From Eledone cirrhosa (Eukaryota), in assembly GCA_964016885.1 (NCBI GenBank), contig OZ024747.1, positions 79,422,001-79,486,000 on the forward strand: a stretch of 64,000 nucleotides of DNA, read 5' to 3'. This document shows, piece by piece, positions 7,350-50,820 of the stretch (its first letter is position 1; every line of letters starts with the position of its first letter). Both the position numbers and the translations under genes were made by a program. The notes below the pieces were generated by a model. It searched no databases. It was not told the origin of the DNA and saw nothing but the letters and a program-made list of their open reading frames with translations.

Positions 7350-7396
<47 letters not shown>

Positions 7397-7558
7397 TAAC
7401 AGCTTAAAGGTTAAGCAAAGAATCGGTGCTTTCACCCTTAACGGGATAAATCTTTGCTCTAGGGTTATATATTTGATATATATGTATCCTTATCGAGCGC
7501 TCTTTGGATTTTAGTCTTCACATTTATTATTATTATTATATATATACATAATACATAC

Positions 7559-7618
<60 letters not shown>

Positions 7619-8178
7619 TGTCTTGAGCCCGGTTTCCGTGGTGTGAAACGACTGAGTGTACAAGACTTCCCCCATCGCAGGGTTAAACCCCCAGCTATTG
7701 CTGGTTCTCATTTTGAGCTGAGTCTACTGGAGCAACAGTAAAATGAAGTGTTATGCTCAAGAACACAACACACAGCCCAGTGCATTGATGTGTAATGTTC
7801 AGTTACTGGGTTACCAGTTTGAGCACACAATGCTACCGGCGTGGGATTCCACGTTTGCGTCTTCACCAGTTTCGGTATCGGTAACAAGCAGAGTGTTCGT
7901 AATAATAAGAAGCGGGAATGAAGTATCAATATAGTATCAATTGACTAGCTCAAGGTGCGATCGGTAATGATTGAGATTCCACAAGCCTATAGATTCCAGA
8001 GTCGGGCCCGATCACTACCGATCACACCTTGAGCTGACTGATTGTGAAACGCGCGTTACGTGTGAATAAAAAAGAAAAAGATATATTGATATTATATTGA
8101 TACTTAAATTATTCTTTTCCATTTATCGTTTTCTGTACGCCCGGCCGACTAACTCACTTGATATGCAAATTAGGCTGC

Positions 8179-8552
8179 TCAGCCGTTAATATGCATAAGG
8201 AAAGTATATTTCAAACGTTCAATCATCTGACAAGAAGGTATACGATGCTGACGATAACTAATAAGCTTGAAACTAGTACATCGTTCCTGTGTCAGTGTTG
8301 AACAAAAAGGCGACGATGGTTGCCGAACACTGTACGGCGTAATTCGGGCTGTTTGTTTACAAACAAACCGAACATTATAATAAATGTTCGGTAAACCCAT
8401 ACGTACATATATATATATGTGTGCATGTATGTATATATATACATACTACTGTACGTCTATATACATATATGTATGTACGTATATATACTTACATTTAAGT
8501 ATCAGCCGTACTAAGAGTGAGAAATGAAATTTTGTTTCATTCTTTTCCATTT
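8179..8552 (+). mobile_element. Dispersed ~370-bp non-coding element containing a minimal hammerhead motif; inverted copy at 42855..43220
   Basis: The two copies align by eye along their length; both lie next to (TA)n. Confidence 0.8.
8242..8284 (+). ncRNA. Minimal type I hammerhead ribozyme motif
   Basis: acgatg-CTGACGA-taactaataagctt-GAAA-ctag-TA-catcgt: stem I, conserved core, palindromic stem III (ACTAGT), UH site. Confidence 0.72.
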
Positions 8553-8577
8553 ATATTGATACTTTGTTCCCATTTAA

Positions 8578-8667
<90 letters not shown>

Positions 8668-9439
8668 ATATATGTAGGAGGTGAGTTTTATTGTAGTACA
8701 ATAAAGCAATGCAGATATCGGATAAGAAGCACTCTACAGTTTGTAGGACTGGAGTATACATAATATATAAGATCAAAAGATGGTTAAAAGAGTTCCATGT
8801 ATTTTATTATGCGCATTTCAAAAACAAATATCATTCAATAACATTTGTGTTTTCATCAGATAAAATAGGAAGACATGATATGAAGGTTAAAATACACTTG
8901 TGAATAGTGCAGTTTTAAATCAACATATATATATATATATGTGTGTGTAAGTGTCTGTACGTGTGTGTATGCGTGTATATATATGTGTGTGTGTGTGTGT
9001 GTGTCTGTGCACGTGTGTATGTGTGTGTGTGAAAGAAATAAGAAACACAATATTCGTTTAACGGTTTAATGGGTCCAAGGGAGGTTAATCCTGTTATTAA
9101 AGGTGTTTATATGTGTGTCGACATATCGTGGATATTATAAGTTATCGTTACCCCAATGATACAAGTGTAGTAGAACCCTCTCTAGCGTGCAGAATAGAGG
9201 TGCCAACCATCTTGTGGTTCCAGCAGGCAGAATGGAGAAAGCACTTCCCCAGAGAATAATGAAAGAGTCTCGTTGAACTAGATACACGTGGAGCTCACTC
9301 TGCCGGGTGGCTAACTTCGTTACGATAACAGTAAGTAGGGAGATGATAGAGGACCAAGAACACCAGAAGTGCTATAGGTTCAATGTTAATATTATTAACT
9401 ATTTCTGGGGCTGTCATTATGTATCACTATGTATGTATC

Positions 9440-10819: not shown

Positions 10820-10824
<5 letters not shown>

Positions 10825-11040
10825 AAAAAATATGACCCCGACGGCAGAGCTCAAGCCGTTTCGACGGCTATTTCTAGACTAAATTAGAATCTAATTTAGT
10901 CCAGAAATAGCCGTCGAAACGGCTTGAGCTCTGCCGTCGGGGGTCATACTTTTTCCTATTTCCCACTCTACTACTCTAAGTATTGAGTACTCTGGTGCAT
11001 TATGGTCCATCTAGTTCCTTACCATAATTCCTTTGTTATA
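10820..11040 (+). mobile_element. Fold-back element in (TA)n: ~140-bp near-perfect palindrome (10820..10959) plus a unique tail with GTATTGAGTAC
   Basis: Arms are directly visible; a related half-copy lies at about 56245..56292. Confidence 0.8.
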
Positions 11041-11057
11041 TATATATATATATATAT

Positions 11058-11315
11058 AGTGGTAGAACACTGGAAGCTAATATCCGTAGTGGTAGAGCAC
11101 TCAGTCCATGGGACGAGTTAGGTAGAAGTGGTTACACAACAGTTAGTTCACCATACCGAGAACAATTGTTTCACCTTAGCGGATCCTCAGCTCGGAATGG
11201 GCATGATTATAGGTCCTTCCTGTTCCTATAATCATGCCCATTCCGAGCTGAGGATCCGCTAAGGTGAAACAATTGTTCTCGGTATGGTGAACTAACTGTT
11301 GTGTAACCACTTCTA
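11058..11315 (-). mobile_element. Fold-back element in (TA)n with 91-bp perfect arms (11123..11213 / 11225..11315), each carrying a hammerhead motif
   Basis: Perfect inverted repeat; ccgag-CTGAGGA-tccgctaaggt-GAAAC-aatt-GTT-ctcgg at 11243..11282 and its reverse complement at 11156..11195. Confidence 0.85.
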
Positions 11316-12912: not shown

Positions 12913-13127
12913 TAATGATAAAAGGCTAAATTGATGGTGGGATTTGAGCTCAGAGTGCAGAAACCCAGAACAAATACTGCCATAGCATTCTAGTCAACAT
13001 TCTAACGACTTTACCAATTTGCTTCTGTACAAAATAAATCGCATAAACTTAACAAATATTTAAAGTAAAATCAATAATTGTGTTTTTATTCATAAATTGA
13101 TTTAATCTTTCTTCTCTTTTGTAAAAG

Positions 13128-14098
13128 GTCAGGTTCTGCAACTGCCACAGTTGGAAAAGGAAATGATTCCATCTTTGATGATCTTTTATCAAACTCTTCA
13201 GGATTAAACTTCGTACAAAATACTGAGCCAACTTCATCCATACATCCACAGGATTCTCTTTCTCAATTAACTCCTTTCTCCACTGCATTGTGTATTTTCA
13301 ATGATTTCATTATTGTCTGTTCTGTTGCTAATGATGTGTGCACTGTAAACATATATCGAAAAGAGGATACATCTTCTGTCTCTGAAAAAAATGTCACCAG
13401 TACCTTGGTGGTACCATACTTCAGTAAATATGTCCCTATGCAAAACTATGACAGTCAGTCATGTGGAAAGTACATGAATCTTTATTTAATTACATCTTCT
13501 GACAATTCTTTAGTTCACTGCTCCCAAACCATCCAACTTCCATCCATGGTTTTCAGTTCGTTGTTTGGTGCAGAGGCCAGTATATTACATTCAGCTGTGA
13601 TATTATTAACTATGCCATCTGGGTGTGTTTACCATTTCCCTCTTAAACAGTGGACACCTCAATACAATTCCGTGGGTTGCAGCCTGTCTATCCTCTGTAA
13701 TCTGAATGCTCCAGTTGTCAAAGTATGTTTTATTCATCTCCAGAAACAATTTGACAGTGACCCACAAACTGAAACCCTATCTAATTCCCAACTGGTTGCA
13801 CCTACCAGAGAATTCCATTATTTTCCATGCTTACTTCTGGCTGCTAAGAATGGCAAATGTTTTGTATTTTCTTCACCAAATAATTTCAATAATCAACTCA
13901 GAGTACTAGAGACCATTAATTTGGAAGATTGTCCAATATCAGACTGTTGTTTGGGAATCAAACCACACCAGTTAATCTACACAACAAAGAGAAAGATTAT
14001 ACAACTTCATTTTGTTTATAATGAATCCATTAGACAAATCCACAAACAGATTTCATCTTTGTCTAGAATTTCTACCTTGGCAACTCTTCAACTAAAAG
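13128..14098 (+). CDS. FAAP100: FAAP100-like exon 3
   Basis: Open frame containing FSSLFGAEASILHSAVILLTMPSGCV, similar to the FAAP100 signature FGLLFGADATLLQSPVILCGLPDGQL; AG/GT borders. Confidence 0.85.
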
Positions 14099-14200
14099 GT
14101 GGGGTTTATATATTTTTTTTTATATTATATTTATTTCTCCGATGTTTATGCTGTGAATCCCGATTAGATATATACATGTGTGTTTTTATATTTTTTTTAG

Positions 14201-15076
14201 ATGACAACACGTTGCTATGTTTATCCACACATGGCCAATTCCACAAGCTATCTATATCTGAAGAAGGATTTAAGATGAACACAAAATTGAAACAAGAAGA
14301 GGAATCTATTCCACAGCTTTTTGCTCAAATGGAAAACATGAGTAAAAAGATTACAATAGCTTCAGAAATGTTGGAAGCTCAGTCCCATATAATTTCTCAG
14401 TTGGTTGTTGGCAGTCACATTATGTGGAGACAGTTTGTGTCTAGCAATATCCAGTGTAAACTGACTGTTGACAAAGACAGCTATGGAAAAACAATCCTTC
14501 AATGTGTGCTGACTAATGGCAAGCTAACTTTCTCGTCTGACTGGTCATTTCTCATTGAAGCTACAACTAAACAAAAATGTCAACAAGGAAGTCACACAGC
14601 GTGTCACACTTTTAAAACTTTATCTCTTGCCAATGGTTTAAAGCCTGAGGAATCTGCCAAGATTGACTTTACATTGGATATCTTGGCACCATCAGACACT
14701 AGAATTTGCATTTCTGCTTGGCTTGTATTCAACTTAAAATCTGGTATGTTTTATTTAGATTCTCCAAATGAAACTTCTAAAAGTTTAAAAACCCAACTCT
14801 CTAAGGGATTGGCTATTCCTATTTATAAAGGAAACACTGATTTCTTATCTTTTATTTTACCTTCAGAAAGGAAAGAATATAAGATCCATTCCATTTCAGA
14901 GATAAATGTTCCTTCTTTAACTTCAATTGTACAAAAAATTGCCTGTGATAAACCAATCTATAAAACTTTTTCTGACCTCCACAAAGATCTTTCTACTGAA
15001 TCAGAACAGATGTTAACTTATACAATTGACATTCCTCCTTCTCTTCAAACTTTCCTGTTTAGTCATAGCTGTACAG
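14201..15076 (+). CDS. FAAP100: FAAP100-like exon 4
   Basis: T-rich AG acceptor, GTAAAT donor; coiled-coil segment followed by LQCVLTNGKLTFSSDWSFLIE, similar to FAAP100 CVLENSS..LDQGWTLCIQ. Confidence 0.85.
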
Positions 15077-15947
15077 GTAAATATTCAAATTCCATTTTAA
15101 TTTAATTTTATTCATTTTGTATAATTTGATCATTTTTCTTACTAAGCATGTATCTGTTATATTTTTACCATTAGAGGTTTTTATTTGTTTTGGTACTGTT
15201 TAACTCTTTCATTAACATATTTCTAATCTAAAATATTGCCTCTGATTTTCTGTTAATTTTGAAAATAATTGAAAATTTGGATGGATTTAGTAATATAACT
15301 AACTTTCTCATTATTAAATTGGTGCTCAAAGCATGACTTAACAAATGTTCTTGCATAAAATTATGATGGCAGGCTTTTAGATAATTATAGACATTTTAAA
15401 ACAAAGTTATTTTATTGTCAAACCAGTGGCGGTTTCAGGTGGGTTGGTATCAAAATATGACAGAAACCTGTAATTTAGTGGTTCCTTAAGAAGCTATGAA
15501 TGGCTTGTGAGAACCAACAATCTGATATAACTAATCTCATCACTTCCTCTGTCCCGAGTACATTCTAGTGTCAACACAGTAGTTTTTCCATCAGCAGTCA
15601 TTGTTCAATTACATCTCATGATTATATCAGTGCATCTAATGTTGCTCTTCAACATTTAACTTTTGTTTTTTTTCTTATACCAAGCAACACTTTATGTATA
15701 ACCTTTTAATTCTTAATGTATGTACCACATGAAATCACATTAATAAGACATTCTTGAAAAGTACAAAACAGCACCATGACTATCACATTAAATATTAACC
15801 TCTTTACTCTAACACTGCAAATTTTGACAACAATCTGTCTACTAGCAAAGATACTATAAACATTTGAATGAACAAACCTGTTTTTAGATATTTTCTACTA
15901 AATCATTACAGGATGTTAATAGTTAATCCTAATTTCTATTCTGAAAG

Positions 15948-24094: not shown

Positions 24095-24966
24095 AGTCTC
24101 GTATATCCGATTTCTATACGATAAAAAAGCGTACCAAAGAACACAAGACTTTACTAACGTCTGGGTGAGCAAACAAAATGAAAACTTTCTACTAGCATTA
24201 GCTCAGCCGATGTACAAAAACATCCTCAAAAAAGTAGCAGAAGTAAGCAAGGTGAAAACACTAAACACACCTTTCAAACAGAAATTTCTCGACAATGATT
24301 GGGACTACTACATTAATATAGACAACATAAAAATACATGAGCATGAGAGTGTTTAAGAAAAAATTAGAAATCCAAAGTATAGACATTCAAGAATTTGTCC
24401 AAGACTTATGGGACCTATTAAACCAAACTTGGCCGAAGAAAAATACCTTTGTCATGGAAGGTGTACCCAACAGTGGAAAGTCCTTTATTACTAAATCGAT
24501 AGCTAAACTATTCAGATATACCAGCACAATACACGGAACCTCGTCATTTCCTTTTATGGACGCAGTTAACTGCGAGATTATTATTTTCGAAGAACCAAAC
24601 ATGATGCTGGAAAGCTTCATCCATTTAAAAAATTTTCCGAAGGAACAGACTGCTCAGTGGAGGTTAAATATAAACCTTCAGCTAAAATAACCAGGATGCC
24701 AATCATCATAACTTCAAACTCTCCTTTCGATAGAAATGCGAGAAAGAAGCTTTTAAAAGCACTGATTAAGTACATGTTCAGACATGAATCACACTTTCTC
24801 AAATCAACTCAACTACAATTGGATCCTAACATTTGGAAGCAATTGTTCAATGAATACGTAACCGAGTTAAGTTTACAACACAAAATATCAGACGACGAAC
24901 TAAATATAAATGAGGTGCGTGATGCATTAGAAATGCCAATAACAAAGAGACCTGAAAACAACGAAC
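24095..24966 (+). pseudogene. NS1: Endogenous parvoviral element: NS1 SF3 helicase fragment with two frameshifts
   Basis: Walker A PKKNTFVMEGVPNSGKSF, Walker B IIIFEEP, B' FKKFSEG...VEVKYK and motif C PIIITSN, spread over three overlapping frames. Confidence 0.88.
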
Positions 24967-25639
24967 AAGGATGAAAGGCAAAGTTGACTCTGGCAGGATT
25001 TGATGATGATAATAATAATAAGTTTTTAATTTAGACACAGAGCCAACAATTTTAGAGAAAGTCGATCCTATCAACTGGTACTTCATTTTATCAACCCCCG
25101 GAAGGATGAAAGGCAAAGTTGACATTGGCAGGATTTGAACTCAGAAAGAAAAAGCTGTAACTAAATACAAGGTATTTTGTCTGATGCTCTAATGATTCCA
25201 CCAATCAACCATGCTAGTAATAACAATAATCGTTTCAAGGAGTATGAAGCCCCCAGGTTTGAAACAGAAGGGGAAATAAGAAGTGGAGACCTACATGCTT
25301 TTCCCTTGAGTATTAGCATTATTAAAGTTATATTTGCAGTGAGTCACAATGTTATTTTGATGAAAACCTACCATCAATAATAAATACATTTTTTTCTAAT
25401 TTTGGCACAAGACCAGCAATTTGGAATGAGGTGGGGAGTCAATCCAGTATTTGTCTGATACTTTGTCGGACCCGGAAGGATGGAAAGTAAAATTGACCTT
25501 GGTGGGATTTAAACTCAGAACTAGATAGCACAAGACATTTTGCTCAACTCTCTAATTCTACCAATTTACCACCCTTACAAATAATTTTACTATAATGTCA
25601 CAAAAGCTAGTTGTAGAGGACAATGTCGAGTTGACTGAA

Positions 25640-26700
25640 CCAACCACAGCCGAAAAGAGGTAGTCATGGTTCTAGGACAGCATTCTTCACCATATGAGAT
25701 GTCATCTAGTGTACCACAGAGATCTGTTCTTGGTCCCCTTTTGTTTGTTGCATACATTAATGACATAGATGCCAACTTAAAGAATGCCACAGTACTGAAA
25801 TATGCAGATGACATCAAGCTGTACCTTGAAATCAAAAGGACAGATCCTGAAATCTATAACTCTTTCCTACAATCAGACCTGGACACAATGCAGCAATGGA
25901 TCACAGACTGGCAACTGAAGCTGGCTGTGGACAAGTGTACCACCATGCATTTTGGGAGGAAAAATCCAGCATCCACATACTCCCTCCACAACACTGATAT
26001 CAAGAAGTCCTCTTGTGAACATGACCTAGGCATTACTGTCAGCAACGATTTGCATTGGACAAAGCACATCTCTAAAACTGTCAAGGCATCACTCAGCAAG
26101 ACCTTTATTAGCCACTCTCCAGCCATCTATTTAAAGCTGTATACAGCTGTGGTTTGACCACACTTGGAATTCGCATCATCAGTCTGGAACCCCTATCTTG
26201 CTCAGAACATTGACCTCCTGGAAACTGTTCAGAGACGTGCAACCAAGCGCATACCCCCCATACTCTGAACGCCTTGCTTCCCTGGGCATGGATTCATTGA
26301 AGCTCCATCTGGCAATGGACTTGGCAAACACCCACAGTTTTTAACCATGTCGCCAACAACAATCCTGAGCACCTTTTTGATCTCCATGTGTCTAACACAC
26401 ATGGACATGCCTATAAAGTCAGAAAACAGCATAGCTCCCACGACTTTCGGAAACATTTTATCATGCTTAGAGTTGCTGAAACATGGAACAAACTGCCTGC
26501 GTCAGTTGTTAGCTGCCGAGACACTGCATCCTTTAAAACACTGATGCTTCCCGAAATTCGCCAAAACTACACCTGATGTCTCCCTTCCATACACATGCAC
26601 ATATCATGACTCATGCTGTTCATTTTCCTGACGTTTGTACATTACATACACTTTTGATGAGTTGTAGTGCACCTGAGCACTGTACACAATATTTTCATTG
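25640..26700 (+). mobile_element. 5'-truncated CR1-like LINE (RT C-terminal region plus 3' UTR)
   Basis: SSVPQRSVLGPLLFVAYINDI...KYADDIKLY...WQLKLAVDKC...THGHAYK...RVAETWNKLP; stops and frameshifts; the 3' tail recurs elsewhere in the window. Confidence 0.92.
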
Positions 26701-29700
26701 TCATAACTGGTATTCATTTCATTGAGCTTAGTGAGATGAAAGGTGTATTTGAACTCAAGATAAGGACAGAACTAAATACTAAATGACCAGCAATTTGGGG
26801 GATAATCAATTAAATCAGTCCCAATTCTTGATTGGTATTTTATGTTATTGAAAGGCAAAGTTGACTTTGGCGGGTTTTGAACTCAAAACATAAAGAGCCA
26901 GAACAAATACCAGAAGGCAATTTGTCTGACACTAACAATTCTGCCAATCTACAGCATTAAAAATAAGAATTTCTGAGACATAGGGCCACAAATTGGGTGG
27001 TGGAGGGGTAAAATCAATAAAATTAACTAATTCTTTATTGATAATTTACTTTATCAACTCCTGAAGAAAGAAAGAAAAAGACAAAGATGACCTTCATGGA
27101 ATTTGAACTCAGAAACATTGCAAAGCATCTTGTCCAACAGTCGAACAATTTTGCCAATCTACTGATCCTGGACTGGTAATTTATTTATCAACCTTTGGTG
27201 GGATTTGAACTCAGAGCGTAAAGAGTCAAAACACATACTATTTAATTTGACTGTTTAATGACTGACAATTTGGCACCTTACATCATCAGTTAACATCTGT
27301 TTCTCCATACTGGCATGGATTGAACAAGATAAACTAAATCAATACTTATTTAGAGCTATTGTCATTGCTGAATAGCCATAGCTCACATAAATTCTAGTTT
27401 TTGCATTGTTTCTACAGCTGGATGCTATCTTTACATATTTTTAAGAATTGCAAAAATAACAGAATTTCTGTAGATTTGTAGCAAATTAAATAAACATAAT
27501 TCAGATTTTTGTATTCCCTTGATATAAATCCAACCAATCATTTTTTTGTTTTCATGGGTTTTTATTTTAAATATAACTTAACAATTTTGATACTAAGCCA
27601 CTTCTATAATATAAAACTATTGATTTTAATGTGTTTATATCTATCTAAGAACCTTTAAGTTAGTTATGCTCCGAACACCATCTTTATAATGAAAAAGTTA
27701 TATTACTAAATCACCCCAAATTCTTATTTTCAAAATGATTTGAAAAACATTGGCAGTGTCTTTCATTGGAAATATAACAAAATGGTTAATTTATTTAGAT
27801 ATTTTTTTTATCTAAAACCCTTTTATTATAATTTTTATGTAAAAGCCTTTGTTTCAAACATCAGGTAAATAATGAGAAAATTAGTTAATTTTATTTAATC
27901 CCTTTAAATTCTTATTTTAAAAACTATTTGCAAATCAGAGGCAGTGTATTTCAAAATACCTCTCTCTCTCAGGGAAGAGCAGATTATACAATACCAGTGT
28001 TTGAACTACTATGCTGCATGGCAGTGGGACATAAGCAGCTAAAAAGAAATGAAGAAAAATGGAACATATGAGCAAGGAAAATAGATGTTAAATGATGATG
28101 ATATATATATATATGTGTCTGGGTGTGTGATTACTCTCTCATTGAGTGCTTTGTGACAGCCTTCAAAAATCGTTTGCAAATCTGCTACTCGCAGCTGCAA
28201 CATCGGTTATACTCATTATTATTATTATATATATATTGAATTTTTCTGAATATTGAAAGCAAAAATAAAGTAATAAATGCATATGTTCATGAAAACACAC
28301 CGAGAAAGAAATTTGTATGAGAGAGAGAGAAACTATATATATTTGTGTACATAAGTAGAAACTATCTTCATCTCCATGGCTTCATAACAGTGGAACCTCT
28401 AGTGGAGGTTATTTCATTATTTATTAAGACCCTAACCGTCTCATGTCCAACATCTCCTTTCTCTTCCTCCCCAACTTCCTCTGAATTTGAGCCTATGTTA
28501 GTGTGATCCACCTGAAAGTATAGAAATAATATTTGGGCCATAGTTTCACTTGATTCAACAACAGGTGAGTATTGTCCCCAAGAAAACAACACAGAGTTTC
28601 AATAATTAAATTTTCATGCCTTGCATACCGTCGAAACCTCTGTTATTGGTTTCTACACAGAAAGACAGCCCACCCTAGGAAGGATCCCTGTGTGACAGGC
28701 CATTCTCCATGGCAATGCCTTTGCCATTTTGTTTGTGGGACACGGCTGAATCACCGCTCAGACTGAGGTGTAGAGTCTGTCCCTCCCTCTCTTGCTTTCC
28801 TTTTTTTTTGTTTCATTTAAATATATTATTTTTTTAATTGTAAATATTATATTCTATTTTTCAATTTAGCATTCCATTTTTAACGTGATTTTCTCCAGTT
28901 ATCAATAAAGCATGGGTAAATTTTTACAACTATACCTATCTCACATTGGTGGTGAAATTTATGTTTTGGACAAATCTGGCTGTCAAAACCGTTGGAAATT
29001 ATTTGATTTTTACTTAACTAAAAAACAAACGATTTCTGACAGTTTTGAAGATCAGATTCATTAAAAGCACAACAGAAACTATAGTAAAAAAAAAATTTCA
29101 CCATTTAAAGCCAGACAGGTGTAATAGTAAAGAAATTTTTTAGGGTATCACCCAGCTAACTAAAAGAATCAAATCATTGTCAATGGTTTTGAAAATCAGA
29201 TTTGTTCAAAACGCACCAAAACATAATTTTCAGCTCCTACACAAGGTAGATGTAATTGTAAAGATTAACCAAAGCAGGAATTTAAGAAGTTTTTCTTTCT
29301 CTTATTGAAGAAAAGAGAATAAAAATGTCAAAATAAAAATCAATTTTTCATTTTTTTAACAATGATTGGGTGCAAAATGATTCCATTTGTTTGGAAGGGG
29401 CAAAGGGTCATATATGTCTAGTTTTGAAATAATAACAATTCATTTGAAGCAGAAATAATATAATTTCATACTCAAACATGGGTCATACATAACCATAAAT
29501 AGCACCAGACCTTCTAGATTGTAAATAATTTTAACATTGGCTCAAGGCCAGCAATTTGGAGGAAGGGGAAAAAAAAAATCAATTATATCAACCCCAGTAC
29601 TTAACTGGTACTTTTTCCTTTCATCCTTCCATGGGGTTAAGATAAGTTGACCTTGGTGGGATTTGAACTCAGAATGTAGAAAGCCATAACTAAATACCAC

Positions 29701-32629: not shown

Positions 32630-33163
32630 TTAGCAACCATCTTTACAACCCACAACGGCACCTATTATTATCCATAAAACTATTCCGGCAACAATACTGA
32701 TGTATATAAAGCACACAGCTAGTTTACCGTCTCTTTGCATGAGGCCATACAGTCCTTTGGACTGGTGTTTCAGTGTCTTCTGTACATAGTGATACGCTAC
32801 AAGTGCTGTAGGGAAAAAGAACACAAAGCTGACACAGGACGCAATCAAAACCCATTGCAGATGTTTCCAGGGTCGTGGTAGCATCTCTGCAGAGGGCACA
32901 CGCCGTACCATATGAGGAACGGAAACTGTTGTTTCTCTGTATGGGTTGTCCGTTGTGTTCATGAATACTGGTTCTATGGAAAATGCTCTCATGTCCTCGG
33001 GACCACCGCCAGAGGGTGTGTTTTGGTCAATCAGTGAAGTAACATCCACTGACATGGCTCCATTGTGGGCATTTAGGTCGGCAGTAAAATCACTGTCCTC
33101 ATGGATCTCCTTGTGTAAGGGCTGCCTCTCACTGGAATGGTTGCCATTGTCACCAGACGACAT
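32630..33163 (-). CDS. CD225/dispanin-family (IFITM/PRRT-like) membrane protein, 177 aa, single coding exon
   Basis: Disordered N-terminus, then P..HL.WVLIASCVSFVFFFPTALVAYHY...G.Y...A..GKLA..FIYISIVAGIVLWII (two hydrophobic segments, CD225 pattern); TTTTGCAG acceptor opens the exon at 33213. Confidence 0.85.
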   Translation of the reverse strand: MSSGDNGNHSSERQPLHKEIHEDSDFTADLNAHNGAMSVDVTSLIDQNTPSGGGPEDMRAFSIEPVFMNTTDNPYRETTVSVPHMVRRVPSAEMLPRPWKHLQWVLIASCVSFVFFFPTALVAYHYVQKTLKHQSKGLYGLMQRDGKLAVCFIYISIVAGIVLWIIIGAVVGCKDGC

Positions 33164-34750
33164 CTTTCTAGCAGCAGCTGTCTTCTCACGTACAGAAGAA
33201 ATACACGAGGCCACTGCAAAATAAAAAATAAAAAAACATTTAATACATTCCAACATAATTTCAACACATGCAGTAAACAAAAATTAATGTTACTTGTTTC
33301 ATACAAAGCAGAAAGGTAAATGTAATCATACACTTTATACACACACACACACATATATCATCATCATCATCGTTTAACGTCCATTTTCCACGCTAGCATG
33401 GCTTAGACGGTTTTTTTTCCATTTGATGCAGGAATGGTTGGGAGACCATGTCTCGCTCACACGGAAGTGTCTCTGGCATTTTTTTTTTATATGTATATAT
33501 ATATATATATATAGTGCCATGATAAAATATATTCACCTCACTTTGTAAAGTGGTTGGTGTTAGGAAGGGCATCCAGCCATAAAATCCATGGCAAAATGGA
33601 ACATATGAGCAAGATGTGGTCATTTGTCCTGCCTAGTCTGAGAAATTAACAACATATCAAACCCATGTCTCCATAGAAAATGGATGTAAAACAGTGATGA
33701 TTATATATCTTCATCATTTCTTTTACATCCACGTTTCCATGCTGGTATGGGTTGGACAAGATGTTTTGAGACAATGTTTTACATCCAGATACTCTTCCTG
33801 ACACCAACCCTTGTAGTCACATCTTATAACATACAGTCTATTCTAAAGTCTGAGAACCTCCATAACAATTTTATGTAAGAACCTTTGTTATGTTTTGCTC
33901 CAAACACCCAATCAAAATCATAAGCAGTGTCTATCATTAAAAATATGGTAACAAAGGGGTTAAACCAGACAGGTTTAACATGAATGTCTTATCACTTTCA
34001 TTACGGGGCACAGCCTTTCTGCCCCCATGCCCTAGGTCCAATAACCCTCCCCCTTCACCCCTCCCCTCTCTTCTGCGACACCAGAGCTCTTGCCATCGCC
34101 TTCCCGTTCTTTTTTTCTTGCTTTTCTTCTTTTTTCTCTATACTTCCCTATTCTTTTGTTTCCTTTTCTTTTTTTATTATTGCCATTATTATTATTATTT
34201 GGATTGGCAGAATTGGTAGAAGGTCGGACACCATGCTTTGCAGCATAGAATTATGTCCCCTTATGGTCTGAGTTCAAATAAAGTACCAGTAATGTACTGG
34301 GATAATTGGTGGCCTTGTGCCAAATGTAGAAACAATTATTATTATTATTATTACTGTAAATAAAGTTTATTTCAATAAAAAACAAAATTTAGTGTTTGAT
34401 TCAAGTGTAACTATAAATGTTGGTGAAAGGCTTAGGACAATATACTTAAATGAAGATTTATCCATTAGCTACAGGTTAACGAGCTAAGTGAAAAGCTTCC
34501 TAGAGTAGCTGTTCTACATTTTCTAGTTGTTGCTGTAGGTTAAGAGATAAGCTTCCTAAATGATTCAGCTACTCTACATGTTGTACTTGTTGCTGTTATT
34601 AGTTCTTTGCAAGCAAACTTCATCATCATCATTATTTTACATCCACTTTCCATAATCTCAGTGGTTGAACGAGTTGTCACGATCCAAGACTAGACGTGTC
34701 TGACAATTATATCTCACTCAGCAACCATAACAATACACCACGTGTTTGTG

Positions 34751-37860: not shown

Positions 37861-38848
37861 AACCCTCCCTAGTGTTGGTGTAAAGTACCAAGAGGACTCT
37901 TCAGTAGTGTCAACACAACAACCTCCCTAGTATTGGTGTAAAGTACCAAGAGAACTCTTCAGTAGTGTCAACAACATAACAACCTCCCTATTATTGGTGT
38001 AAAGTATCAAGAGAACTCTTCAGTAGTGTCAACAACATAACAACCTCCCTAGTATTAGTGTAAAGTACCAAGAGAACTCTTCAGTATCAATAACAACAAC
38101 CTCCCTAGTATTGGTGTAAAGTACCAAGAGAACTCTTCAGTTGTGTCAACAACACAACAACCTCCCTATTATTGGTGTAAAGTATCAAGAGAACTCTTCA
38201 GTAGTGTCAACAACATAACAACCTCCCTAGTATTGGTGTAAAGTACCAAGAGATCTCTTCAGTATCAATAACAACAACCTCCCTAGTATTGGTGTAAAGT
38301 ACCAAGAGAACTCTTCAGTTGTGTCAACAACACAACCTCCCTATTATTGGTGTAAAGTATCAAGAGAACTCTTCAGTAGTGTCAACAACATAACAACCTC
38401 CCTAGTATTGGTGTAAAGTACCAAGAGAACTCTTCAGTATCAATAACAACAATCTCCCTAGTGTTGGTGTAAAGTACCAAGAGAACTCTTCAGTTGTGTC
38501 AACAACACAACAACCTCCCTATTATTGGTGTAAAGTATCAAGAGAACTCTTCAGTAGTGTCAACAACACAACAACCTCCCTAGTATTGGTGTAAAGTACC
38601 AATGGAACTCTTCAGTAGTGTCAATAACACAACAACCTCCTTAGTGTTGGTGTAAAGTACCAATGGAACTCTTCAGTTGTGTCAACAACACAACAACCTC
38701 CCTAGTGTTGGTGTAAAGTACCAATGGAACTCTTCAGTTGTGTCAACAACACAACAACCTCCCTAGTGTTGGTGTAAAGTACCAATGGAACTCTTCAGTT
38801 GTGTCAACAACACAGTGACCTTCCTAGTGTTGGTGTAAAGTACCAATG
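37861..38848. repeat. ~57-61-bp tandem satellite, about 17 units, with trimeric higher-order structure
   Basis: Unit AACCTCCCTAGTATTGGTGTAAAGTACCAAGAGAACTCTTCAGTAGTGTCAACAACATAAC; three variants recur in order. Confidence 0.95.
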
Positions 38849-39809: not shown

Positions 39810-39998
39810 ATATTTATTAAAATAACAGATTAAAGTTTAAGCAAAGAATCGCTGCTTTTGAGTGAAAGCAGCAATTCCTTGCTTAAACTTTAATCTGTTA
39901 TTTTAATAAATATTTGCTCTATGGTTCTTATATATTTGATATATATTTATCCTTACGAGCCCTCTTTGGATTTTAGTCTGCACATTTATTATTATTAC

Positions 39999-40000: not shown

Positions 40001-40029
<29 letters not shown>

Positions 40030-40449
40030 TAATTAGAAAGTGAACAACACAAAATATAACTACTCCATTACCAAAGTACCAAAGGTTTCTGGATCCGTAG
40101 TTATATTTTGTGTTGTTCACTTTCTAATTAAATAGCTCTGTTCTATACATAGAGCACTCTTTTTTCCTTTGCTTTTCCATCGGAATTACCTAACACACAC
40201 ACATATATATACACACACACACACACACATATACATGTGTGTGTGAGTCTATAAGTACAAATGACAGAAGAGTGTACTCAATACAATGTGTAGAGTGTAC
40301 ATCTGTAACGAAGCCAGACTACATACAAACATACATACACATTGCATTATATATTAATGAAAGGTAATGAAGCCTCAAGGATGTTGGTACATTTCTAACC
40401 ACCAGGGGATAGTTCATAATACACACACACAGATATATACACACACACA

Positions 40450-40836
40450 CACACACAGATATATATATAATCAAAAGTTTAACAAGGTTCATTGATTAAT
40501 CAATGAATAAAGTTTTACAATAGATTAGAAGCACTCAACAATGAGTTTTTCTGGAGTTAATATTACTTCAAAATATTAATAAATATAGACATTCATGTGA
40601 TCAAATATATTTTATTATACATATTTCAGAGGTACTGAGCTATTTCATCAGTACGTCCTCATCAGATAAAATAAATTGACTGCCAAGACTGGAATTGAAC
40701 CATCAGCACAGTTGAGGTATGTCAGACATCAATTTATTTTATCTGATGAGAACGTACTGATGAAATAGCTCAGTACCTCTGAAATATGTATTATAAAATA
40801 TATTTGATCACATGAATGTCTATATTTATTAATATT

Positions 40837-40841
<5 letters not shown>
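40450..40841 (-). mobile_element. Fold-back element with ~113-bp arms (40567..40679 / 40729..40841), each containing a hammerhead
   Basis: Inverted arms visible; unique tail carries AAGCACTCAACAATGAGT. Confidence 0.88.
40608..40673 (-). ncRNA. Type I hammerhead ribozyme motif (mirror copy on + at 40735..40800)
   Basis: tattttat-CTGATGA-gga c gtactga/tcagtac c tct-GAAA-tatgta-TA-ataaaata. Confidence 0.8.
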
Positions 40842-40881
<40 letters not shown>

Positions 40882-40884
<3 letters not shown>

Positions 40885-41310
40885 GTTATGTTTAATTTGT
40901 TGGGATTCAACAAGCTTAAAAATTGTTATAACTGATATAAAGCACTCAACAATGAGTGGAGTAAATACACAATATATTAATAAATGGAAACTATATTTAT
41001 AAAACCATATTTATTTTATTATATATATTTCAAGGGCAACCAAGGCAAATTATGGTGCGCTTTCATCAGATAAAATACAGATTTGTTTTATAAATAAATA
41101 TTGACATACCCGGAAAAAAGACAACCTTAACGGTTCATGAAGCTTCAACCGTTAAGGTTGTCTTTTTTCCGGGTATGTCAATATTTATTTATAAAACAAA
41201 TCTGTATTTTATCTGATGAAAGCGCACCATAATTTGCCTTGGTTGCCCTTGAAATATATATAATAAAATAAATATGGTTTTATAAATATAGTTTCCATTT
41301 ATTAATATAT

Positions 41311-41315
<5 letters not shown>
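40882..41315 (-). mobile_element. Fold-back element with 169-bp perfect arms (40967..41135 / 41147..41315), each containing a hammerhead
   Basis: Perfect inverted repeat with 11-nt loop; unique tail carries AAGCACTCAACAATGAGT. Confidence 0.9.
41205..41270 (+). ncRNA. Type I hammerhead ribozyme motif (mirror copy on - at 41012..41077)
   Basis: tattttat-CTGATGA-aagcgcacca...tggttgccctt-GAAA-tatata-TA-ataaaata; 8-bp stem I, predicted cleavage after 41262. Confidence 0.82.
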
Positions 41316-42282: not shown

Positions 42283-42601
42283 TATAATAGTTACAAGTAA
42301 TAAAACACGAATTTGAATCTATCAATTTCGACATTCACCAAACTTATATATCTAGATATGTATGTATGTATATACATATCTAGTAGTAACACAACAGATA
42401 GTTCACCATATATATATATAGATAGATATATATATATAGAGAGAGAGATATATAGAGAGAGACAGAGATTTAATATAGAAATGGCTTCTACAGGACTAGA
42501 ACTGTTTCATTCGAAGGAAATTTTGTATATACTCTACTAATGTATTGAGTACCTCACTTATTGTGGTTACCCCTATTGAGCCCGGGACTCACACACCCCC
42601 C

Positions 42602-42807: not shown

Positions 42808-42857
<50 letters not shown>

Positions 42858-43118
42858 GGAAAAAATGAAACGAAATTTCATTTCCCACTCTTAGTGTGGC
42901 TGTTACTTAAATATAAGTATGTACACGTACATACATATATGTATACAGACGTACAGTAGTATGTATATATATATACATACATGCACACATATATATATGT
43001 ACGTATGGATTGACCGAACATTTATTATAATGCTCGGTGTGTTTGTAAACAAACATCCCGTATTAAGCCATAGTGTCTAGCAACCATCGTTGCCCGTTTG
43101 TTCAACACTGACAAAGGA

Positions 43119-43161
43119 ACGCTGTACTAGTTTCAAGCTTATTAGCTATCGTCAGCAACGT
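43119..43161 (-). ncRNA. Minimal hammerhead ribozyme motif (paralogue of 8242..8284)
   Basis: acgttg-CTGACGA-tagc taataa gctt-GAAA-ctag-TA-cagcgt. Confidence 0.72.
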
Positions 43162-43557
43162 ATACCTTCCTGCCAGATTGTTGAACGTATATACTTACCT
43201 TATGCATATTAACGGCTGAGTATATATATATATATATATATAGTATAAATAAAGTTTCATACACTTAACATGTATGTGCTATCATTCGTTTCAGGTCCAG
43301 TCGTGGCTGAGGTAGTGATTGAGTCGCTCCAACCAGCAAAACTACGGAGCTTTGGAATAATAACATCAAACGCATGTCTGTCTCCAGATTAATACATTAC
43401 AGTGTCTCACAAATGAATTACCTAATAGGTCATCTGAAGATGTCGTGCCATGGATTGCATCGTGGTATCATAATATAATCATTTCACCACAGGAATACGT
43501 ATTATGGTTAATTGGGTAATTAAAGAAGTTGTGAAATCTAACCTTCATATTGTATTA

Positions 43558-43810: not shown

Positions 43811-44369
43811 ATGACTAGTATTGTATATGTATGTAAACAGAGGTATTGTGTCAAGAAAGGTAAGGAATATTGTAACCAAAGAAGAGAACGATAGTAAAAA
43901 CCAAAACTGTCGCTAAAGAAGATTAATAGAAGATATAGAGAGATGTTAAAGAAGTCACCATCTCAATATTCTTAGGTTACAAGACAGAAAGACTTACAAA
44001 ATGGCCTCCATCAGTCTCACGACAAGAATTCCGGTTATTTGATCAATGGAGCAAACTGGTCGGGAAATTTACATGCAAATAAGCAGTAGATCATTCCACA
44101 CATATACGCATATCTTTAATGTAAATTATCAGATAGAATTAGTGTGACAAAGCTATACTTAGAAAAGAATGGATACACAATAGTGTGTGTATATTATGTT
44201 TGTTACAAAGTAGTTGAAATTGTTATACAATGAGAATAACAATCATGAAAGAAATAATTCTACTTAGAGATAAATGGACACAAACACTGTGTATATTATG
44301 TTTTAAGAAGATACTTGAAATTCTGAATTTCAGAACTCACAGATCTCCAATTGGGAACTACTATATTAA

Positions 44370-48200: not shown

Positions 48201-50505
48201 TATGATTTAGCTTCGCATGTAGAATTACATAAAAATTAAATTATGATATATATATATGTGTGCATGTCTTTAATTATTGCGGTAAATATACATATGCACC
48301 ACAATATTTTCAGTTTAATTAACAAATCGTAGAGAAGTTAACTTCGTCATTCTTCCTGGGGCCGATTGAATTACGCCTGTATTAGAATTCACTAATTACT
48401 AGTACACACATATATATATGTGTGTATGTATATTATTAGCACATTAAAAGTTTAAGCAAACAATTTTTGCTTTCATCCTAAAGCTGGAGTGAAAGCAGAA
48501 ATGATTTGCTTAAACTTTTAACCTGTACTAATAATATATATTTACAGGTTTAAATATATATACTGTATTACATCCCTTATTGAGTCCTCTCTGGTTTTTT
48601 GTCTTTGTAGTTATAACTACTATATATATATATATATCATCATTTTACATTCACATTCCATGCTGGCATTGTTTGGGAGGGTGATCACGTTCTTAGACTA
48701 GACAAGTTGGATGACCATGTCTAGCTCGTGTTTCATTTCAACATGGTTTCTACGGTTGGATATTCTTCCTAATGCCAACTACTTTACAGTGTCTACTTGG
48801 TGTATTTTATAGTGGCCCTAGCTCAATCAATTTAGAGAACATACTGGGTGCATTTTATCATGCCAACAACATTACCTCTTTATAGATTGTACAAGAAGAA
48901 TTTTATCATGGCAGCAGCTCTAATACTTTACAGAGTGTACTGGGTACATTTTATTATTGTCTAAAACTAATATGCTAAGGAAGCTGTGAAGTAACAAGAA
49001 AAATACTGTGCTGGTTGACTTGAAGATAAACAATGTACATCCAGCCTGAAAATTGATAGATGGTTGATAAAACCCCCATAAGTGATCAATAAACAACTAA
49101 AAGAGCTCTACCTGAATTAGATTAGTGCAGGATCTGCAGCATATAAGGTTAAAGGCAGTATAATACTATTGTATAAAGTACTTAGATTGGGGTTCCTGAA
49201 AATGTGGAACCCAGAGCTAATGCTAATCTTCCTACATTGTTAATTTGGTATTGAGGAAAGATATAGTTTAGCTAAGATCAAAGATGTTCATGAGTAGTTT
49301 CAGGGAATCTAATTAGCAGAAGGTGATAATTGTTTCTACTTTTGGCACAAGGCCAGCAATTACCCAGTAAAAGATAGTTTAGTCAAGTCATACTCAACAA
49401 CTGATCAATGGGCATATTCAGGATCAAATACATCAGACGTACCATTAAGACAAAAATAAAGTTGTCAGCAGCATAAATATCAGGAAAATCATTGATGAAA
49501 ATTAAGTCTAGGACCCCCCCCCCCCCCCCCCCCAAGCTGAAATTCTGAAGGACACAAGGTGATAATAGCAGGTAATCGGAGCTGATGGCTATAAGAGAAT
49601 GAGATGGTCAAAGTGGATGGTGATCAAAGCTGGATGATAAACACAGCAGGAGGTGATCAGAGCAGGAAGTTAATTACAGCAGGATGGGCCTATGGGTACT
49701 CAGGGGAAGTATGCAGAAGCTGCCTACATGTAATTAGATATTAATAGTTCTGTAATGGATTGCCTGGATGAGTATTGTCGTTTTAATGATGCTATTGGAT
49801 TGGTGTTGTGGTGCAAACCTATTTAGGAGTAATCCTGTGTGGCTTAAGAGTTGGATGTATGGCTTGGGTTGATGTAACTTGAGCTGCTTCTGTGCCAGTG
49901 ACATGTACTGTTATTTCTGGTTGAGTGATGGTATGTGTATGTAAATGTGGCCCTGTCAGAACAGGTGCTTATGTAAGTGCTAGACCTGGGTGGTGGCTCT
50001 GAGTATGGTCTTGTAGGGTCTGTTGGTGAGATTTAGGTGGAGTCATGATCATGTGAGCATCTGTACTGTGTGGACCTAGGTGAGTGTCAGCCAGTGCGGA
50101 GGCAAAATTGTGTGTGCAAATGTATTGTTTACCTAAGGCTATATATGCTGGTGTGGATGTGTACAATGGATGTTGGGAAAATAGTCTTACCCTCCTGGTT
50201 CATAAGAAGGTCTGAAGTGTTTACACAAAGTTCATCCTTTTTATTTCATAGTTGTTCCTCGGTGATGATATGGCCAGTTAACCATTAGCCCTTTTGGCAA
50301 TCAGTCAAGAACCATCTGTTGAAAGGGCAAGAGCTCAGCCATTGTGCCTTGACTTATAAAATAACCATACTCTACTATCCCAAGTATCAAGTACTCTGTT
50401 GAGTAATGGTCTAACTAGTTCTAGTTATGTTTGGTTTTACCCTCATATATATATATAACCCATGCTAGTGTGGAAAGTGGACGTTAAACAAGCAGGATGA
50501 TGATG

Positions 50506-50552
<47 letters not shown>

Positions 50553-50784
50553 AGGCAACACGGTAAAAACCTCCCAGCCCCACACTGTAAATGTGGTTGG
50601 TGTTAGGAAGGGCATCCAACTGTAGAAAACCCGCCAGACAGTCCTATGCGAGCAAGACAACCACTCTTGCCTCAAGTGGGAAAACCCCCGTCCAAACCCA
50701 TGCAAGCGTGGAACACGGACGCTAAACCTGATGATGATGATGATATATATATATATATTTCTTCTTTAATTTCTCATTCTATTT

Positions 50785-50820
50785 TCTGATGAAGGACTAG
50801 CATCTGAAACATTAAGACTC
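50785..50820 (+). ncRNA. Degenerate minimal hammerhead motif; second family copy on - at about 35128..35165
   Basis: CTGATGA-aggactagcatct-GAAAC; the other copy reads CTTATGA-a-ggac tagc gtcc-GAAACGTT-aaga. Confidence 0.55.

Follow-up and report, generated by a model that had tools for sequence, protein, structure and literature searches.

Layout of the locus

The window, by which we mean the whole 64,000-nucleotide stretch of octopus DNA analysed here, carries two inverted repeats, E1 and E2, placed around one common (TA)n tract, with arms of 113 and 169 bp, respectively. An earlier note on this DNA had described two adjacent inverted repeats with arms of these lengths, and both were recovered where it had placed them. 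The shared tract, a (TA)20 run at 40841–40881, is the putative insertion target and, together with the microsatellite flanks, supports the note's proposal that these elements target microsatellites.

E1 comprises a left arm on the minus strand (40567–40679), delimited by inverted-repeat search and arm comparison, and a right arm on the plus strand (40729–40841), which continues into (TA)n. The inverted-repeat search first gave 40560–40679/40729–40848, 120 nt at 96%; the true arms are 113 nt long, differ at two positions (40751 and 40792) and enclose a 49-nt spacer (40680–40728, plus strand). The arms of E2, found by inverted-repeat search, lie at 40967–41135 (minus strand) and 41147–41315 (plus strand, continuing into (TG)n/(TA)n) and are 100% complementary over 169 nt, with an 11-nt spacer (41136–41146, plus strand). 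In the sense of the ribozymes described below, both arms run outward from the centre, a head-to-head arrangement. One arm of each element, the right, ends in microsatellite; the left continues into a 3′ tail of 96 nt in E1 (40471–40566, minus strand, with two hairpins) and 84 nt in E2 (40883–40966, minus strand).

The E1 spacer is family sequence (read depth about 1e5), contiguous with the tail-less right arm as its 5′ extension, and aligns with the upstream GGTATGTCA of E2 in the orientation of the tail-less arm only. Within the E2 spacer, 8 nt (41139–41146) prolong the tail-less right arm in the 5′ direction, and a read contig of run X4 covers 41139–41234. The arms are not nested in either element: the tail lies on one arm and the extra 5′ sequence (49 nt in E1, 8 nt in E2) on the other. 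The string GGTATGTCA itself, at 40716–40724 in the E1 spacer and at 41172–41180 in E2, stands upstream of both hammerheads and may be a 5′ splice donor; it is absent from E3, a third family member. The 16-nt satellite unit at 1–2517 contains a similar string (minus strand). A tRNA B-box-like string on the minus strand of the E1 spacer was dropped as a candidate, as the spacer continues the plus-strand arm.

Aligned to each other, E1 and E2 are identical at 124 of 212 positions. By this comparison they are different subfamilies in one (TA)n tract and not a functional twin, and their adjacency therefore likely reflects one microsatellite having been used repeatedly. Repetition of the family in the genome is high: summed depth in run X1, which is not a copy number, was 1e4–1.7e6 over most of the two elements against 5–10 in the unique flank at 40249–40370 (four of 16 sequencing runs examined). 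Depth peaked in the 3′ half of the ribozyme and was lower in the tail.

A Pfam scan of 120 of the 200 filtered open reading frames (ORFs) in the window returned no reverse transcriptase (RT) or GIY-YIG ORF of a Penelope-like element (PLE). A host CD225-family gene is represented by a CD225-type ORF at 32633–33283 (minus strand); among eight matches, its protein shares 89% identity with one from Argonauta and 75% with one from a cuttlefish, which makes the host an octopod. A 669-aa open frame without Pfam match at 13096–15102 (plus strand) belongs to a host gene and probably extends through an intron. At 24331–24971 (plus strand), two pieces of ORF in separate frames match parvovirus NS1/SF3 helicase (PF01057, PF00519), as a broken endogenous parvo/densovirus-like element, and a LINE-type RT fragment (PF00078) lies at 25639–26154 (plus strand). 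The window also contains a 16-nt satellite (1–2517), a 61-nt minisatellite (37864–38846) and many copies of an abundant SINE-like family of dispersed repeats of about 200 nt (e.g. at 44369 and 58576), presumably an octopus SINE.

Hammerhead folds and their predicted activity

E1 and E2 contain four type I hammerhead folds, one per arm, so that each element has one ribozyme on each strand. Each is built from stem I (TATTTTAT/ATAAAATA), the core segments CTGATGA and GAAA, an 8-nt self-complementary stem III and a UH site. A strict descriptor matched the right hammerhead of E2 (41205–41270, plus strand), with a predicted cut after A41262—the site that the earlier note had named—as well as the left hammerhead of E2 (41012–41077, minus strand, predicted cut at 41020) and the intact left hammerhead of E1 (40608–40673, minus strand, predicted cut at 40616). 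The note had placed a hammerhead in every arm; this is borne out as far as the folds go, with the exception that the right hammerhead of E1 (40735–40800, plus strand) carries two substitutions and is predicted to be impaired. It falls outside the descriptor matches because the substitution at 40751 breaks a pair at the base of stem II; at 40792, U replaces A as the cleavage base. At both sites, the left-arm base predominates in reads of other copies, and the right ribozyme of E1 has therefore likely decayed.

The descriptor gave five matches in the window, compared with a mean of 0.015 (maximum 1) in 200 order-3 Markov windows. Its matches beyond E1 and E2 were one in another family at 43155 (minus strand) and one in E3, the third subfamily member, which lies in (TA)n at 8674–8925 (minus strand) and has no visible inverted arm. 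The E3 hammerhead (8800–8867, minus strand) shares stem I and core with E1 and E2 and has a third stem II and the stem III ATGCGCAT.

Between E1 and E2, stem II is identical at 9 of 31 positions, stem I plus core at 15/15 and the segment from GAAA to stem I at 19/20; among all three subfamilies, stem II identity is 9–14 of 31, with stem I and core invariant. The divergent stem II sequences pair nonetheless, as the earlier note had observed, and all three versions follow one plan: three base pairs, a pyrimidine mismatch (C.C or C.U) and then a longer helix. A fourth version, seen in reads of run X14 with loose ends at 41031–41032, seems by eye to keep the same plan. The self-complementary stretch of stem III covaries in its centre (ATATATAT, ATATGTAT and ATGCGCAT). 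When four ribozymes were aligned, 98.6% of cells paired and 5 of 18 pairs changed on both sides, counts that are not a probability, as the four related sequences form a small set and themselves served to draw the structure; in slid controls, pairing fell to 34–62%. The changes on both sides of these pairs, in four rows, support the note's claim of selection on ribozyme structure.

Taken alone, the ribozyme folds are thermodynamically weak (z −0.44, −1.99, −1.66 and −0.55). Fold prediction puts the cost of a monomer with a 2-bp stem III at 2–3.5 kcal/mol and the gain from a stem III homoduplex at 2–10 kcal/mol, energetics that fit the dimer mode described for PLE hammerheads (PMC4209133) and make the dimer-type stem III of the earlier note likely. 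PLE hammerheads are reported to cleave poorly in vitro (PMC4209133), and the ribozyme of the lizard PLE PAc needed protein (PMC11167929). A transcript through both arms is predicted to form a long hairpin (−176 to −266 kcal/mol) with 87–98% of its bases paired, so the ribozyme would be off in that context, sequestered and silent. The proposal of self-cleaving motifs on both strands thus holds as a prediction at the level of DNA and is not expected to extend to the two-arm transcript, which is predicted to bury the ribozyme.

The earlier note had suggested the Rfam hammerhead models as a check: these covariance models gave no hammerhead match in the window at the gathering score, at E ≤ 5 or at E ≤ 10, all Rfam matches being low-score miRNA-type hits on microsatellites and hairpins. 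A covariance model built from the four ribozymes added one weak match (43426–43510, plus strand, E 0.009), possibly a degenerate hammerhead, the remainder being near chance. Hammerhead patterns gave no matches in the collections viral_contigs, metagenome_contigs and genome_contigs; the SINE pattern of the window also gave none in the metagenome collection, and those collections therefore probably lack this host. The stem I and core of E1–E3 are absent from the supplement of Craig et al. (PMC8557442).

Tails and related insertions in the window

Each tail opens with a motif that the earlier note had recognised in both elements; the motif was written there on the antisense strand, and it sits on one arm only. 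In E1 it is a stem-loop of the form ACTC...GAGTGCT (40530–40557, minus strand) that begins 9 nt past the stop point of the other arm; in E2 it lies at 40941–40962, and a motif scan placed that of E3 at 8728–8755 (minus strand). A second hairpin follows the motif in all three (40488–40507, minus strand, in E1; 40897–40913 in E2), unrelated in sequence among them and kept as a hairpin.

Across the window, the tail opens with RCTC...GAGY-N-CT in 6/6 tailed fold-backs examined and the motif begins 2–9 nt after the end of the tail-less arm in 6/6 measured; a seventh fold-back, at 48410, gave no motif match. The pattern R-CTC..GAG-Y-N-CT-Y had 16 matches at 13 loci, three of the 16 being nested repeats, compared with a mean of 1.18 (maximum 5) in 100 Markov windows. 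Its first base and the Y were complementary (A..T or G..C) in 16/16 matches and at 13/13 loci, where the pattern permitted otherwise. Two of the 13 loci (21838 and 57295) have no clear PLE context. Of seven motif regions folded, five had z below −2; the E3 tail has no predicted fold as drawn (z −0.81), and in E1 and E2 the pairing is made by an inner ACTC.

The motif was also seen by eye in consensi printed in the supplement of Craig et al. (PMC8557442): GCTC...GAGCACT follows the hammerhead in Hydra-2_Amil and Hydra-2_Ajap and opens Hydra-1_Ajap, and Hydra-1_Crog has a variant. This amounts to three of six Hydra consensi plus a variant in a fourth, judged by eye and without an alignment statistic; as printed, Hydra-1_Amil and Hydra-1_Obim lack it by eye. 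A similar arrangement near the start of Chlamys-9_cRei, at least one case among 30 of 44 Naiad/Chlamys motif places in that source, means that the tail motif may not be clade-specific.

Among the related fold-backs, that at 11058–11315 has a hammerhead core of Hydra type (CTGANGAT...TGAA) in both arms, and its tail, present on one side, contains the motif; another at 10820–11037 likewise has a one-sided tail and motif. That at 39810–39998 has 49-nt arms and a one-sided tail with the GCTC...GAGC form, and that at 40028–40190 has 36-nt arms and a one-sided tail with GCTC...GAGCACT. A copy of the 39810 family at 7391–7545 maps to 39862–39906 (minus strand) plus 39908–39997 (plus strand) of its relative: the upstream part is inverted, the tail is direct and nothing is duplicated, a clean inversion. 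The CTGANGAT...TGAA hammerhead form occurs in other families of the window at 8248, 11169/11248 and 43155.

Several further copies were noted. Those at 42855–43221 (minus strand) and 8178–8570 (plus strand) are 85% identical copies of a further hammerhead family, whose core is of Hydra type and whose stem III is ACTAGT; both alignments begin at the same point, and the copy at 43 kb has an AG/GTAAGT splice-donor-like site upstream of the ribozyme. The insertions at 39810–39998, 7391–7545 and 48410–48557 belong to a family of very high depth (up to 1.8e6 in run X1), and loose read ends, by read consensus only, suggest for the 39810 family an upstream hammerhead-like fold with a core variant (U4 as A). 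Minimal hammerhead-like motifs of the short Penelope/Poseidon type lie in a dispersed repeat at 50778–50816 (plus strand) and 35160 (minus strand). Insertions that are degenerate or consist of a tail only, and that carry the motif or a near variant of it, were seen in or beside microsatellites at 28133 (plus strand), 51015 (minus strand), 52221 (plus strand) and 42530–42600 (plus strand).

Origin of the insertions and comparison with known elements

Endonuclease-bearing PLE insertions are described as having an inverted 5′-truncated copy and a tail at one end (PMC8557442), head-to-head being the most frequent PLE arrangement (PMC3846280). Three traits of EN+ PLEs, whose full copies also encode a telomerase-like RT plus GIY-YIG, were found at E1 and E2: a head-to-head inverted 5′-truncated copy, a tail at one end and, as predicted from fold and covariation, a type I hammerhead near the 3′ end; the tails of 84–96 nt are longer than the 30–40 of published PLE tails. 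This match to the published layout supports the link to PLE pseudo-LTRs drawn in the earlier note. Hammerheads on both strands have precedents as well: dual hammerheads on opposite strands about 100–700 bp apart in Schistosoma PLEs (PMC4209133) and, in Penelope-13_HM, a hammerhead listed on each strand via a 5′ inverted copy (Craig et al. 2021 supplement, PMC8557442).

Among PLE clades, Hydra fits best, given its (TA)n targets, canonical hammerheads and an Octopus family: (TA)n is the target of almost every Hydra family, and Octopus is the source of Hydra-1_Obim (PMC8557442 supplement). Two Hydra traits are present at E1 and E2, namely insertion in (TA)n and a canonical three-stem hammerhead near the 3′ end, with the CTGANGAT...TGAA form confined to neighbouring families and not seen in E1–E3. 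Preference for (TA)n is common to Hydra, Neptune and Naiad and is therefore not diagnostic for Hydra; Neptune, which is defined by a CX2-5CxxC linker in the ORF and a microsatellite bias, is a possible alternative, as this bias also fits E1 and E2. Naiad was rejected, as that clade is defined by absent canonical hammerheads (PMC8557442) and full hammerheads are present here. Hydra proteins are characterised by RWK, DKT, a CxCX5C linker and no CCHH (PMC8557442); clade membership and autonomy of E1 and E2 are what we infer.

We consider it fairly probable that E1 and E2 are short 5′-truncated PLE insertions, probably of the Hydra clade, each primed from both ends of a cut in (TA)n, a mode of priming that we infer from three loci (E1, E2 and 7391–7545). 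The RT/GIY-YIG protein of the element would cut the (TA)n tract and prime reverse transcription from both DNA ends, presumably recognising the tail stem-loop. One DNA end would be extended from a site 2–9 nt before the stem-loop, giving the tail-less arm, and the other from the far end of the tail, giving the tailed arm; both cDNAs would stop early and be joined at their truncated ends. The hammerhead would be the element's own 3′-UTR/pseudo-LTR ribozyme, selected in the donor RNA and likely to work as a dimer through stem III or when assisted by protein, and its presence on both strands at E1 and E2 would be a by-product of insertion. The protein of the lizard PLE PAc is a predicted dimer that cuts both strands and extends them, with reverse transcription beginning at two points, one at each boundary of the tail, near a stem-loop; the account of this initiation does not address inverted copies (PMC11167929). 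Its two-site initiation, the non-nested arms and the clean inversion at 7391–7545 together favour two-end priming at the tail boundaries.

The earlier note had supposed that a single target-primed cDNA turns back and copies itself. The E2 arms, identical over 169 nt, agree with this, but such a fold-back makes one arm a subset of the other; in E1 and E2 the tail and the extra 5′ sequence are on different arms, so neither arm contains the other and a target-primed cDNA folding back cannot produce them. With 7391–7545 being an inversion without duplication, we regard this route as very unlikely. Self-priming on the antisense transcript, after which the endonuclease would trim the tail off the RNA-derived arm, retains the PLE origin and is better placed: it was proposed by Arkhipova 2013 (PMC3846280), it places the spacer where E1 and E2 have it, on the tail-less arm, with trimming it also yields their geometry, and short palindromes overlap the E2 junction (41134–41146). 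It is nevertheless unlikely, since the copy at 7391–7545 offers no duplicated stem to prime from and target-primed initiation occurs in vitro at both tail boundaries and on both strands (PMC11167929); a 3-nt stretch of spacer that prolongs the tailed arm in the 39810 copy speaks weakly in the same direction.

A different question is whether the elements form a dedicated short non-autonomous family (about 250–270 nt, SINE- or retrozyme-like) mobilised in trans by a PLE, a reading that is compatible with two-ended priming and that we hold to be possible, if doubtful. E1R, E2 and E3 all start about 55–66 nt upstream of stem I, read depth is very high, one X4 contig has (CT)n directly upstream of 41139 and non-autonomous PLE derivatives have been described (PMC8557442; bioRxiv 10.64898/2026.07.22.740005). 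However, the left arms have different truncation points, in related families the truncation falls within the ribozyme, the locus has no tandem arrays and truncated ends of autonomous PLEs give the same picture, Hydra 3′ UTRs being so short (PMC8557442 supplement) that truncation yields such lengths. An artefact of assembly or library preparation, arising from a high-copy repeat, is a highly improbable source of the palindromes: no read or contig from the four sequencing runs examined spans either whole palindrome and the E2 arms are perfect, but the E1 arms have two differing sites and a unique spacer between them, six tailed fold-backs of one design lie in the window and raw reads of another sample contain opposite-strand joints of the family (40635/40759; 12 reads, 5 starts), which could be chimeras. 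A MITE or foldback DNA transposon with a chance hammerhead would account for long inverted repeats in TA-rich sites and is scarcely credible, as the repeat is terminal on one side only, junctions vary between copies, solo and tail-only copies exist (8674–8925 and 28133) and what is conserved is RNA structure.

As a kind of PLE insertion, hammerheads on both strands included, the elements are known already; the class being known, surprise is limited and the value of the case is mechanistic. In the open-licence literature—with Repbase, Dfam and subscription papers outside our scope—we found no description of these octopus families, the ribozyme variant, the tail motif or PLE twin priming; the main text of a repeat annotation of octopus reports recently active Penelope families and does not mention ribozymes (PMC13282606). 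What is new here is the tail motif, covarying at 13/13 loci, together with the non-nested arms, which suggest priming from both cut ends. The origin of inverted, tailed PLE insertions has been named as an open question (PMC8557442); in octopus, short copies with both junctions preserved recur many times within 64 kb, and two-ended priming and self-priming can therefore be counted against each other in one assembly. The tail motif offers a concrete cis-element for mutation in the existing in vitro PLE assay; it may also help to recognise PLE remnants that lack an ORF and might otherwise be classed as MITEs or unknowns in repeat pipelines. In cephalopods, A-to-I editing or RNAi might also draw on perfect hairpins of such length and density.

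With Hydra-clade PLEs (e.g. Hydra-2_Ajap, Hydra-2_Amil, Penelope-13_HM and Hydra-1_Obim; PMC8557442) the octopus elements share a type I hammerhead near the 3′ end, (TA)n targets, an inverted 5′-truncated copy that puts a hammerhead on each strand, occurrence in octopus and, by eye, the order of hammerhead, AT-rich linker and GCTC...GAGCACT. Unlike these, E1–E3 have a long stem II (31–33 nt) with 3 bp followed by a C.C/C.U mismatch, a stem I of 8 A-U pairs and the motif ACTC...GAGTGCT; they lack the U...U flanking stem II and the CTGANGAT...TGAA form of most Hydra entries, have no sequence match to Hydra-1_Obim and are known here without a linked ORF. The minimal hammerheads of PLEs (Cervera and de la Pena 2014, PMC4209133) resemble them in having a type I fold, a palindromic stem III, a stem II that varies extremely inside a single genome and dual opposite-strand motifs; E1–E3 differ in having A-U or G.U instead of the conserved G10.1-C11.1 pair, no extra base 9/10.1, a longer stem I and an internal stem II mismatch.

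Non-LTR retrozymes (Cervera and de la Pena 2020, PMC7229834; bioRxiv 10.64898/2026.07.22.740005) are likewise short, non-coding, PLE-related and equipped with a type I hammerhead, but form head-to-tail tandem arrays that give circular RNAs, whereas E1 and E2 are head-to-head with a one-sided tail. The retrozyme reading of the earlier note found no support, there being no array of tandem direct repeats at 40450–41315. Poseidon PAc of Anolis (Frangieh et al. 2024, PMC11167929) resembles E1 and E2 in its AT-rich targets and in a hammerhead upstream of a tail with a stem-loop; its two RT start sites bounding the tail, with both strands cut and extended, are the likeness on which the start sites proposed for E1 and E2 are modelled. 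In PAc, hammerhead and tail overlap the ORF start, whereas E1 and E2 have early stops after the hammerhead and a tail of 84–96 nt.

The proposed route to E1 and E2 works like the twin priming of L1, a different retroelement class. In L1 twin priming, the two target ends prime on the element RNA and an inversion results; at insertions such as E1 and E2, by contrast, the second priming site would be fixed by the structure of the tail, and the arms usually overlap. We tentatively put forward, as a serious possibility, that inverted PLE insertions are products of programmed twin priming, in which a stem-loop closed by RCTC/GAGY, found from corals and sea cucumbers to octopus, would set the two start sites of a dimeric RT-endonuclease. 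The octopus genome would then be a very large natural record of this process, including a mismatch-kinked hammerhead with a long stem II that Rfam misses.
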